Positions 28,384 to 42,563 of a stretch of 64,000 nt of DNA are shown in pieces. The position numbers and the translations under genes were made by a program. This DNA is from Gemmatimonadota bacterium (GTDB lineage: Bacteria; Latescibacterota; UBA2968; UBA8231), in the NCBI GenBank assembly GCA_038153405.1, contig JAYOYH010000002.1, positions 1 to 64,000 on the forward strand. The letters are read 5' to 3'. Positions within the stretch are counted from its first letter, which is position 1, and every line of letters starts with the position of its first letter. The notes beneath the pieces were generated by a model. That model was not told the origin of the DNA. It saw only the letters and a program-made list of their open reading frames with translations, and made no database searches.

Positions 28384-28500
28384 TCATCCTTGTCTCTGTT
28401 TGTGACGCGGATTGCGCTTGCAAATCACGCGCACAACCCCGTGTCGGCGAATGATCTTACACTCAGGGCAGCGCTTGCTAACAGATGCTTTGACTTTCAC
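28384..28500 (-). CDS. rpmJ: 50S ribosomal protein L36 (not in ORF track)
   Basis: Manual translation from [41 protein letters not shown]. Confidence 0.97.
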
Positions 28501-28525
28501 GATATTACTCCAACAAAAAGCGGGA

Positions 28526-29863
28526 TTATCCCCGACGTCCTTGTATGCGTCCCCGCTTCATAAACCCCTCGTAGTGGCGGGTCATCAGCTGGGACTCAAT
28601 TTGCTGCAGCGTATCCAAGGCTACGCCAACTATGATCAACAGACCGGTGCCGCCAAAAAACTGGGCAAATGAGGGGTGGACCTTAAACTGCTGTATGACA
28701 AAGAAGGGGAATATGGCAACGGCCGCTAGGGCGATCGATCCCGGCAGCGTTATCCTCGTCATGATGCCATCGATGTACTGCGCCGTGCGCGGCCCCGGTC
28801 GAATGCCGGGAATAAAGCCGCCATGCTTCTTCATATTATCGGCCAACTGATTCGGGTCCATGACGATGGCAGTATAAAAGTAGGTAAAGAAGATGATCAT
28901 AAGACCGTATATCGTCCAGTAGACCACCGACTCCGTCGAGAATAGCCCGCCGATACTCTGCAAAAATTCGCTGTCGGGAAAGAGCTGCGTTATGGTCCCG
29001 GGTAAGAACATGATGGACTGCGCAAATATAATCGGTATTACCCCTGCCGTATTGATCCGCAGCGGAATATGCGTCGTTTGCCCACCGTAGACCCTGCGCC
29101 CAACGACGCGCTTGGCGTATTGAACGGGAATTTTGCGCAGTCCCTGCGTCAGCAAAATTACAAAGGCCACGACCAGAAACATCATCCCGACCAGGACAAT
29201 TTCCTGAATAATATTCTTGCCCAGGCCGATGTTGTTCAGGTAGTGCTGATACTCGTAGCGAATGGCATTGGGCAGTTCGGCTATAATGCCGATGAAAATT
29301 ATGAGCGAGATGCCGTTGCCGATACCGCGCTCGGTGATCTGCTCGCCCAGCCACATGATGAAGACCGTCCCCGTCGTGATCGTTATGATGGTCTCTATCG
29401 TAAAGCCAATGCCAGGATCGGGAACCGCGGACAGACCGGACGCCGGGCCGCGTATTGTTTCGAGAAAGTAGCTGACGCCGTAGGCCTGTGCTGCAGCCAA
29501 AAATACAGTGCCATAGCGCGTGTACTGGGTAATTTTCTTGCGCCCCTCTTCCCCTTCGCGCTGCAGCTTTTGGAAGTAGGGAATGACGGCGCCCAACAGC
29601 TGCAATATAATAGAGGCGCTGATATACGGCATTATACCGAGGGCAAAAATGGTCGCGCGCGTAAAGGCCCCTCCGACAAACATATCGTACAGGCCGAAAA
29701 GCGTATTACCCGAGTTGCTGAAAAACTCTTGGACGACCTTAACCTCGACGCCGGGAACGGTAATCTGTCCACCGATGCGATACACGACCAACAGTCCTAT
29801 AGTGAATAGGATGCGCTGTCTCAGCTCAGGTATTTTGAAGCAGTTTTGAAAACTCTGCAGCAT
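28526..29863 (-). CDS. secY: Preprotein translocase SecY
   Basis: [58 protein letters not shown]. Confidence 0.98.
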
Positions 29864-36164: not shown

Positions 36165-37001
36165 CTACTTCGAATTGCGCCGACGCAGGATCATCGCGTC
36201 AGAGCGGTTCTTGTGCTTGCGCGTCTTGTAGCCCTTGGTGGGCTTGCCCCACGGCGTCACCGGATGGCGCCCACCGGACGTCTTGCCCTCACCGCCGCCG
36301 TGCGGGTGATCGACCGGATTCATCACGACGCCGCGCACCTTCGGGCGGCGACCCAACCAGCGCGCGCGGCCGGCCTTGCCGATTACGACATTGCCGTGCT
36401 CTACGTTACCTACCTGACCGAGCGTTGCCATGCACTGCACTGCGACCTCGCGAATTTCACCCGAGGGCAAGCGGAGTTGCGCACGCCCATTCTCACCACG
36501 CCCGAGGAGCTGAACTTCTGCACCTGCACTGCGCGCCAGTTGGCCTCCACCTCCGGGCTGCAGCTCGACGTTGTGAATGGTTGAACCGAGGGGGACATTC
36601 AGCAGCGGCATGGCGTTGCCCACGCTAATCGGCGCGTCGGGGCCAGCAACTACGGAAGCCCCTACAACGAGCCCAGCTGGAGCCAAGATGTAGCGTTTGT
36701 CGCCGTCGGCATAAACCACCAAGGCGATGAACGCAGAGCGGTTGGGATCGTATTCTACGGAAGCGACCTTGCCCGGAACTCCAATTTTGTTGCGCTTAAA
36801 GTCAATGACTCGGTAACGGCGCTTGTGACCACCGCCGCGACGGCGCATGGTCATTCTTCCCTGATTATTGCGCCCGCCGGACTTGCTTACGGCACCGCGC
36901 AGCAGCGATTTCTGTGGGCTGCTGACGCTGATCTCCTCGAATGAGTTAACCGTTTTATAGCGCAGGGTAGGCGTTATGGGACGAAACTTCTTGACTGGCA
37001 T
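36165..37001 (-). CDS. rplB: 50S ribosomal protein L2
   Basis: [29 protein letters not shown]. Confidence 0.98.
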
Positions 37002-37014
37002 AATTTAGTCCAAC

Positions 37015-37302
37015 CTATACGTTTTCAACGAAGTCGATTGAGTCACCGGCCTTGAGCGTGACATAGGCTTTCTTCCAGCCTGCGCGACGCCCAGCGTAGA
37101 GGCCCTGCCTCTTGGGTTTGCTAGGCACCTTGATGGTGCGCACCGATTCGACGCTAACGTCAAAGATGCTTTCTACGGCCTGCCGAATCTGCACTTTATT
37201 GGCCTTTGGATGCACGCGGAAAGCATACTTATTGCCCTCGCGCAAAATCGTGGCTTTTTCAGTGATGACCGGCTTCAATATGATGGAGCGAGGGTTGCTC
37301 AC
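37015..37302 (-). CDS. rplW: 50S ribosomal protein L23
   Basis: PVITEKA, ANKVQIRQAVE, WKKAYVTL. Confidence 0.97.
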   Translation of the reverse strand: MSNPRSIILKPVITEKATILREGNKYAFRVHPKANKVQIRQAVESIFDVSVESVRTIKVPSKPKRQGLYAGRRAGWKKAYVTLKAGDSIDFVENV

Positions 37303-37313
37303 AGGATCTTCTC

Positions 37314-37961
37314 CTAAGCCTCAACTGCAGCGTGGTGCTCTACGAGCTTGTCCAACGCCTGTCGGGTAAAAAGTATCACATCGGCCGAAACGACGTCGTA
37401 CGTCCCCAAGGAGCCAATGTGTGTGGCATTGACCCGCTGGATATTGCGGCTGGATTTGACCAACACAGTCGCATTTTCGGGCGTTACAAAGAGCACCTTT
37501 TGGCCATCGAGGCCGCAAGCGTCAATGACCCCTTTGAACGACTTGGTGCTGGGCTGATCATAGTCGAAATCGTCGATTATTCTGACCTGTCCACCGGTAC
37601 CTTTGAGCGTCAACGCCGAACGAAAGGCCAAGCGTTTGAGTGCCTTGGGCATTTTCGAATAGTAGGAGCGCGGCTCTGGACCAAACGCCACGCCACCCCC
37701 GCGCACCAGCGGAGAACGATTGGAACCGCGACGGGCGCCACCCGTTCCCTTCTGCCGATGGTGCTTTTTGCTCGTCCTTGCGATCTCCGAACGCGTTTTC
37801 ACTTTGGCAGTACCCTGCCGCTGGTTCGCTTCGTAGGTAACAACCGCGCGATAGAGGGCGTATTCGGAAACCTCGGCGGCGAACAACTCATCCGGCAATT
37901 CCACCGAGCCGTTGGGCTTGCCTTCCGTCGTGAGAACTTCTACCTGTGCACCCATGCCCAT
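37314..37961 (-). CDS. rplD: 50S ribosomal protein L4
   Basis: RQGTAKVKTRSE, RQKGTGGARRGS, GGGVAFGPEPR. ATG overlaps the rpsJ stop (TGATG); alternative ATG at 37955. Confidence 0.97.
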   Translation of the reverse strand: MGMGAQVEVLTTEGKPNGSVELPDELFAAEVSEYALYRAVVTYEANQRQGTAKVKTRSEIARTSKKHHRQKGTGGARRGSNRSPLVRGGGVAFGPEPRSYYSKMPKALKRLAFRSALTLKGTGGQVRIIDDFDYDQPSTKSFKGVIDACGLDGQKVLFVTPENATVLVKSSRNIQRVNATHIGSLGTYDVVSADVILFTRQALDKLVEHHAAVEA

Positions 37962-38269
37962 CAAACCTTAATGTCTATGCCAATGCCAGCGGGCAAGTCC
38001 AACTTCATCAGCGCGTCCACGGTCTGCGGCGTCGAATCGTATATATCGATCAGGCGCTTGTGAACGCGCGTCTCGAACTGCTCGCGCGATTTTTTGTCTA
38101 CGTGCGGCGAGCGCAGCACGGTGTAGATACTGCGCGAAGTCGGCAGCGGCACGGGACCCGCGATGCGGGCCCCACTGCGCTTAACCGTCTGCACTATCTC
38201 GTCTACAGACCTATCCAATGCCACGTGATCATAGGCCTTCAGGCGAATTCGAATTCTATCAACAGCCAC
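37961..38269 (-). CDS. rpsJ: 30S ribosomal protein S10
   Basis: [31 protein letters not shown]. Confidence 0.98.
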
Positions 38270-38293
38270 TTGGCGTGTCTCCTAGAGAGTTAG

Positions 38294-39484
38294 TTACTCG
38301 ACGATTTCGGTGACCACGCCCGAACCAATCGTGCGACCGCCCTCGCGAATAGCGAAGCGCAGGTTCGACTCGACGGCAATGGGCTGAATCAGATCAACTT
38401 CCATGGTGACGTTATCTCCCGGCATGACCATCTCAGTGCCTTCCGGCAGCGTGATCGAACCGGTAACATCGGTGGTGCGGAAGAAAAACTGCGGGCGATA
38501 GCCGGTAAAAAACGGCTTCTCGCGACCGCCTTCCTTGCTGGTCAGCACGTAGACCTCAGCCTTAAACTTGGTATGCGGCGTAATCGAACCAGGCTTGCAG
38601 ACGACCATACCGCGCATCAGTTCATCTTTTTCGACGCCGCGCATGAGCAGACCGACGTTGTCACCAGCCTGACCTTCGTCAAGCAGTTTGCGGAACATTT
38701 CGACGCCGGTAATGGTGGTCTTACGCGTATCGCGGATACCGACCAACTCGACCTCTTCGCCAACCTTGACGATGCCGCGCTCAATTCGACCGGTGCCCAC
38801 CGTGCCACGACCAGAGATGCTGAAAACATCTTCGATCGGCATCAGGAAAGGCAGATCGACCGGGCGCTCGGGAAGCGGAATCCACTCGTCGACGGCATTC
38901 ATCAATTCGTCAATGGCACCTGAACCCGTCGGTCCATCGTTTCCCTCGACAGCGGCCAGAGCCGAACCGCGGATAACCGGCGTATCGTCGCCCTCAAAGC
39001 CGTACTCGTTGAGCAAGTCGCGCGTCTCCAACTCGACCAAGTCGAGCAACTCCTCGTCGTCAACCTGGTCGACCTTATTGAGGAAGACGCAAATGCGCGG
39101 TACGTTGACCTGGCGGGCGAGCAAAATGTGTTCGCGCGTCTGGATCATAGGACCGTCGGCGGCGCTCACCACCAGAATGGCGCCATCCATCTGGGCGGCT
39201 CCGGTGATCATATTCTTGATGTAGTCGGCGTGTCCAGGGCAGTCGACGTGAGCGTAGTGACGACTCTCCGTCTCGTATTCTTGGTGCGATACGTTAATTG
39301 TTACGCCACGCGCCTTTTCTTCCGGGGCGTTGTCGATCTCGTCAATGCCCTTGGCCTGCGCCAAGCCCTTGCTGGCCAAGTGCAACGTAATGGCCGCCGT
39401 AAGGGTGGTCTTGCCGTGGTCGACGTGACCTATCGTTCCAATGTTTACGTGAGGCTTATTGCGCTCGAATTGTTCCTTGGCCAT
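38294..39484 (-). CDS. tuf: Elongation factor Tu
   Basis: [31 protein letters not shown]. Confidence 0.99.
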
Positions 39485-42534: not shown

Positions 42535-42563
42535 AAGGTAAATCTCAGCTATATAACTGTCAA
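42535..42563 (-). promoter_or_regulatory. sigma70-type promoter of the str operon
   Basis: TTGACA-17nt-TACCTT between rpoC and rpsL. Confidence 0.65.

Follow-up and report, generated by a model that had tools for sequence, protein, structure and literature searches.

The S10 operon of this Latescibacterota genome lacks rplC, the gene for ribosomal protein L3, between rpsJ and rplD, and the sole L3 gene of the genome lies intact on the contig and strand that also carry rplD, 45.9 kb upstream of it. The split is an old, family-wide trait and not peculiar to this genome. It is likely that the family ancestor copied its own rplC to a nearby site and then lost the operon copy, so that L3 would now be made from a separate, short transcript, as predicted from sequence.

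The rpsJ-rplD junction and the relocated rplC

The window, i.e., the whole stretch of 64,000 nucleotides that was analysed, is C2:1-64000, and the numbering of contig C2 continues from it. The following features surround the junction:

37015..37302, minus strand: rplW (uL23), an open reading frame matched by tblastn to relatives, with the rest of the S10-spc-alpha cluster coming after it
37314..37961, minus strand: rplD (uL4), an open reading frame scoring 207.5 bits against TIGR03953 (cut-off 130.1)
37955..37963, minus strand: the rpsJ-rplD junction, the usual slot of rplC, with the TGA stop, an ATG at 37961 and a second ATG at 37955
37961..38269, minus strand: rpsJ (uS10), 102 aa, an open reading frame scoring 159.2 bits against NF001861 (cut-off 85)
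38294..39484, minus strand: tuf, 24 nt upstream of rpsJ, which connects the str and S10 operons; the sole tuf found
42535..42563, minus strand: predicted sigma70-type promoter upstream of rpsL, TTGACA-N17-TACCTT, from a pattern scan

S10 and L4 both score above their NCBIfam cut-offs. At its C-terminal end rpsJ reads IDIKV-TGA, and an in-frame ATG that overlaps this stop (TGATG, with the A at 37961) opens rplD. Judging from the open reading frames of the window and the junction sequence, this leaves no space for an L3 remnant between the two genes. The initial annotation had described rplC as cleanly missing here, with neither a remnant at the junction nor an L3-like reading frame elsewhere in the window, and all of this was confirmed: when the entire genome was searched in six frames, there was a single PF00297 match (C2:83938-84201), which falls outside the window.

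The junction was bridged gap-free by a DNA contig (runs X4 and X5; 37609-39000, 0 differences) and by an RNA-library contig from a different study (X7; 36900-38689, 4 differences). The figures for X4 and X5 were identical and were therefore counted as one data set; neither of them is the run that was flagged as the possible source. The junction was uncovered in RNA run X9. No loss of about 630 bp was seen at the junction, and the earlier view that this is a real rearrangement and not a gap was upheld.

The argument originally offered for that view, the coupled junction, fared less well. In all 23 family rpsJ loci that were fetched (L031-L053), rpsJ runs directly into rplD; the TGATG or TAATG overlap is found in five of them, all five from the window's genus, while in the other 18 there are 1-52 nt between the rpsJ stop and the first rplD codon that aligns. 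It is the second ATG, at 37955, that matches the rplD start kept throughout the family. Given its occurrence in 5/23 loci and the position of the conserved start, the overlap is weak evidence for coupling of rpsJ and rplD, and it was rejected as a family trait or as proof of coupling.

A genome-wide profile search for L3 located one intact rplC, which has the following surroundings:

C2:84480-83863, minus strand: rplC, 205 aa, intact, a full-length match of 259.9 bits to TIGR03625, the equivalog profile of bacterial uL3 (cut-off 142.9), over profile positions 2-201 of 202
C2:84580-85488, plus strand: a GT9 gene, heptosyltransferase-like, divergent from rplC
C2:83430-83777, plus strand: a HIT gene, convergent with rplC
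C2:84564-84536: predicted rplC promoter, TTGCTG-N17-TAAATT, a pattern match
C2:83802-83850: terminator-like hairpin downstream of rplC

The reading frame of rplC has no internal stop. RNA-library contigs of two studies cover the gene, and these contigs give no strand, level or transcript ends. The RNA contigs end near the predicted terminator (L001 1414-1435), but this was not counted as a transcript end, as there are breaks in the DNA contigs as well, at 1438-1459.

The S10 operon genes other than rplC keep the canonical order (from the open reading frame list, with relatives checked through rplP). The rpsL site is the sole match of the promoter pattern between rpsL and the alpha operon in the pattern scan, and str-S10-spc is predicted to form one long transcript without rplC, read through from the rpsL promoter.

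Several further departures in gene content were noted in the same genome. The gene infC (IF-3), the second translation gene to be separated from the operon in which it usually lies, stands alone outside the window at C2:73956-74564 on the minus strand, about 9 kb from rplC. It is not followed by rpmI-rplT, rplT being located on contig C23, and infC lies in the same region in all four other family genomes examined (L305-L308). At 28384-29863 of the window, rpmJ comes immediately after secY, and the cluster is without adk, map and infA, the last of which is found on contig C6. A tRNA cluster at 53710-54161 of the window contains tRNA-Gly, tRNA-Thr, rpmG, tRNA-Trp, secE and nusG, without tRNA-Tyr and without a second tuf, the genome having one tuf; tuf was likewise not observed here in sister-family stretches.

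Distribution and expression signals across the family

The family (f1) comprises 76 genomes in 18 genera of Ca. Latescibacterota. L3 was found in 72 of the 76 and L4 in 73, and in none of the 69 genomes with both genes is rplC adjacent to rplD; the split is thus common to the whole family. The two genes lie on different contigs in 30 of these 69 assemblies. They share a contig in the other 39; in 37 of these, rplC lies on the strand of rplD and 28-130 kb upstream of it, and in the remaining two it is about 1 Mb or more away. The rest of the phylum was sampled with 77 genomes of at least 85% completeness from 12 other families; rplC and rplD are adjacent in every one of the 74 with both genes, with 9-153 nt between the matches. 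The simplest reading is that one relocation event took place on the f1 stem.

The neighbourhood of the relocated gene is also constant. Among 67 family rplC loci, those with enough flank have GT9 upstream (64/65) and HIT downstream (61/64), and pyrK-pyrD usually lies beyond GT9. A sister-family genome (G030) carries a carB-TPR-pyrK-pyrD block with ygfZ upstream of rpmG-secE-nusG, and in f1 rplC lies just beyond pyrD in that region, on the strand of the superoperon. Since G030 already has this block, the landing region of rplC appears ancestral and local, although the block was not seen upstream of rpmG-secE-nusG in the other four of the five outgroup genomes examined. An empty insertion site, with HIT adjoining GT9, was not found in five outgroup genomes, in one of which GT9 itself was not found, and none of the 76 family genomes has two intact copies of rplC.

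Some individual loci differ from the common pattern. One family rplC (L073:4001-4609, also L025) has an in-frame TGA after codon 183, beyond which L3 similarity continues. Another locus (L120) encodes an L3 86% identical to that of the window's genome in the family neighbourhood but without GT9, and its Planctomycetota title is probably a mislabel. In an unrelated genome, about 780 bp lie between rplC and rplD (L121:1110-1888). Four metagenome rplC loci (L274, L278, L283 and L302) have no rplD directly downstream within 1.1-2.5 kb of flank, L278 also being without rpsJ upstream of rplC, and are possible further relocations.

The pattern TTGCNN-N16-18-TANNNT occurs within 170 nt upstream of rplC in 60 of 61 family loci, compared with 2.8% of shuffles and 0/184 coding windows; it was derived from the same loci, which are related, so that these counts overstate independence. 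The count started from 62 loci, one of which was left out for its short flank, and the single miss has the motif further upstream. A genus-balanced sample of 33 loci had the motif in 32, with a spacer of 17 nt in 32/32 (16 genera), the remaining locus being truncated. Sites of this type are also present ahead of rpsL, the tRNA-Gly-Thr cluster and greA in the window's genome, and we infer that the rplC motif fits a housekeeping sigma70-type promoter. A generic promoter and terminator scanner returned 0 promoters and 0 terminators in the rplC region of the window's genome. Downstream of rplC, a hairpin followed by a T-run was found in 50 of 60 loci with our own heuristic, a count made without a shuffle control.

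The predicted rplC leader is about 49 nt long in the window's genome and mostly 37-70 nt across the family, with longer, GC-rich leaders of 70-120 nt in some genera. In one genus (L110, L111 and L106) the leaders of 110-120 nt have GC-rich segments in common that were not found in other genera, and in another the leader is filled with a tandem repeat of about 16 nt (L113, some 150 nt ahead of 4001). The only words shared by the leaders across 16 genera are Shine-Dalgarno words. Folding was no better than in shuffled sequences, with z-scores near or above 0 in nearly all leaders and a single value below -2, that of the tandem-repeat leader. The longest leader matches to the 23S rRNA of the same genome, at 7-12 nt, were scattered and none recurred, and there were no Rfam hits in the eight rplC loci searched. 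On these four grounds, a structured L3 leader or one mimicking rRNA was rejected. As for the earlier suggestion that rplC might be under separate regulation, transcription of its own is predicted from sequence, while a special regulatory leader was sought and not found.

Descent of the relocated L3 and its catalytic-centre loop

The L3 of the family is distinguished by its catalytic-centre loop. In L3 this loop comes close to the peptidyl-transferase centre, and sites of resistance to pleuromutilins and oxazolidinones lie within it. When aligned to a 209-aa solved L3, which we take to be that of E. coli, the family loop reads HGTPDRVRH[GP]GSIGQGTTPGKVWKG, and that of the class sisters HGQSDRHRAPGSIGQSS.PSRV. 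A histidine at E. coli position 142 is present in 61/67 family L3s versus 0/40 from other members of the phylum, and the motif QGT[TSD]PG[KR]VW in 67/67 versus 0/40. The loop was remodelled on the family stem. The histidine was discarded as a general marker of relocation: in a non-random sample of at least 80 metagenome loci there were 12 L3s with RH[GP]G, of which ten were in the operon and one stood alone, the context of the remaining one being assigned to neither.

The initial annotation had left open whether rplC was moved or was replaced by a copy from elsewhere. Family L3s form one clade (100/99) in a careful 40-taxon tree. The unconstrained L3 tree places f1 outside a 91/89 group of the other Latescibacterota, with the class together in 0/200 bootstrap trees, whereas eight concatenated operon proteins place f1 with its class sisters, families f2-f4 (FastTree 88). 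L4, which has never moved, also leaves the class together in 0/200 bootstrap trees, and so this failure is not specific to L3. Class monophyly for L3 was not rejected by the AU test (p = 0.256). Once the loop (alignment columns 130-168) had been taken out, the class formed one side of a branch in a quick tree (SH-aLRT 59, a weak value), and the f1 stem shortened from 0.32 to 0.17. The tree was further extended with 148 of the 150 nearest representatives at 50% identity; the two left out look like pieces of the L3 of f1 itself (82% and 86% identical). In this tree f1 is nested in a 62-row clade (FastTree 99) with 37 other Latescibacterota L3s and three representatives, and none of the 148 representatives is sister to f1 as a foreign donor would be. 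The 17 outgroup genomes from beyond the Latescibacterota are a biased sample, as they were found by patterns from this L3. A protein homolog search returned only close relatives among its best 120 matches. Taken together, the trees favour the relocated rplC being a native gene that moved over a foreign import.

In the preferred scenario, a short-range copy of rplC would have arisen through segmental tandem duplication with reciprocal loss or through single-gene translocation, and the operon rplC would then have been cleanly deleted between rpsJ and rplD, in a single ancient event on the f1 stem. Because L3 is essential, a working second copy would be needed before the operon copy was lost, hence the order of duplication before deletion. 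Such a short-range copy and deletion would explain the position, strand and phylogeny of rplC. We infer this route, since neither the two-copy intermediate nor the empty HIT-GT9 site was seen. Thereafter, rplC would be transcribed from its sigma70-type promoter to an intrinsic terminator and, as it probably lacks an L3-binding leader, promoter strength would set the supply of L3 in place of coupling to rpsJ and rplD. Microhomology between the starts of rplC and rplD (both MGA in the window's genus) was dropped from the scenario, as the starts vary across the family.

The strongest case to be weighed against this native origin is xenologous replacement, in which the family ancestor acquired an rplC of foreign origin, perhaps for its different loop, and the operon copy was then deleted. 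The donor would be a different lineage of Latescibacterota or one that is unsampled. The sharp loop difference and the position of f1 in the free L3 tree are in its favour, as is the level of L3 identity, which for the class sisters (50-57%) does not exceed that for some other phyla (up to 56%). We nevertheless consider this unlikely: vertical descent was not rejected, L4 is equally unresolved, the class is restored, albeit weakly, without the loop, and f1 nests among Latescibacterota with no sister among the added representatives. Xenologous displacement is recognised by a gene tree in significant conflict that groups the gene with its donor, and the L3 tree shows neither, its deep branches being poorly resolved. 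The codon composition of rplC is that of the operon genes (GC3 of 0.72 versus 0.66-0.71 for seven of them), although a gene transferred long ago would no longer stand out in this respect, and the gene has stayed close to its old locus. Of the two options in the initial annotation, "moved" is thus supported by the AU test, L4, GC3, the loop-free tree and the added representatives, and replacement by a foreign copy fits less well.

Selection of the move for L3 feedback, whereby a leader mimicking the L3 site of 23S rRNA would let free L3 repress its own synthesis, is very improbable. The strictly conserved position and spacer of the promoter and the longer GC-rich leaders of some genera could be read in this way, but most leaders are short, and they are no more stably folded than shuffles, share only Shine-Dalgarno words, and have neither a recurring 23S match nor an Rfam hit. 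Even less credence, to the point of being negligible, can be given to an assembly or binning artefact that dropped about 630 bp at the junction and misplaced a distant rplC. The assembly is in 93 contigs and 93% complete, which would leave room for such an error, but the DNA and RNA contigs cross the junction, the 23 family rpsJ loci are alike, several of them from single-contig chromosomes, and rplC is on the same contig in a family-wide neighbourhood.

Beyond this family, it is conceivable, if rather doubtful, that rplC has been excised repeatedly across bacteria, with the uncoupling of L3 from the S10 transcript letting large-subunit assembly be set separately and, here, with a remodelled loop that perhaps alters sensitivity to loop-binding antibiotics. 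L3 is an early assembly protein of the 50S subunit. If such repeated, independent exits hold for other phyla, the long-standing question of whether co-regulation keeps the superoperon together, and why L3 can leave it, becomes testable.

Comparison with known rearrangements

We found no paper on rplC relocation in a literature search whose coverage left most subscription journals outside. The relocation cleanly interrupts a gene order that is among the most conserved in bacteria, and the interruption can be dated. As a derived trait, it is a marker that unites the 18 genera of this family of uncultured Latescibacterota. It also has a practical consequence, as marker pipelines that use one S10-spc contig will miss L3 in f1.

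The E. coli S10 operon and its control by L4 are described in PMC3616713. Compared with that canonical operon, ten of the 11 genes are present here in canonical order, and position 2 is without rplC. The gap between tuf and rpsJ, at only 24 nt, is too short to accommodate an L4-responsive leader of the E. coli type. Most sister-family loci that have kept rplC have a gap of comparable tightness.

Single-gene "deletions" from the ribosomal cluster, with copies elsewhere, have been described for rplJL, rpmJ, rpsN and secY in Gammaproteobacteria and Bacilli, the scope of PMC8046335, and duplication followed by deletion is the route that the same source proposes for such losses; rplC has no occurrence in its main text. 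The exit of rplC is thus a known type of rearrangement, with no new regulatory element or mechanism shown. Like the "deletion" class as it is set out in the main text of PMC8046335, it removed one gene, left the concatenation of the operon intact and is accompanied by a functional copy elsewhere. Unlike the cases given there, the gene that left the operon encodes a large core protein of the 50S subunit and has no second paralogue, and it has stayed near its old locus across a family of 18 genera.
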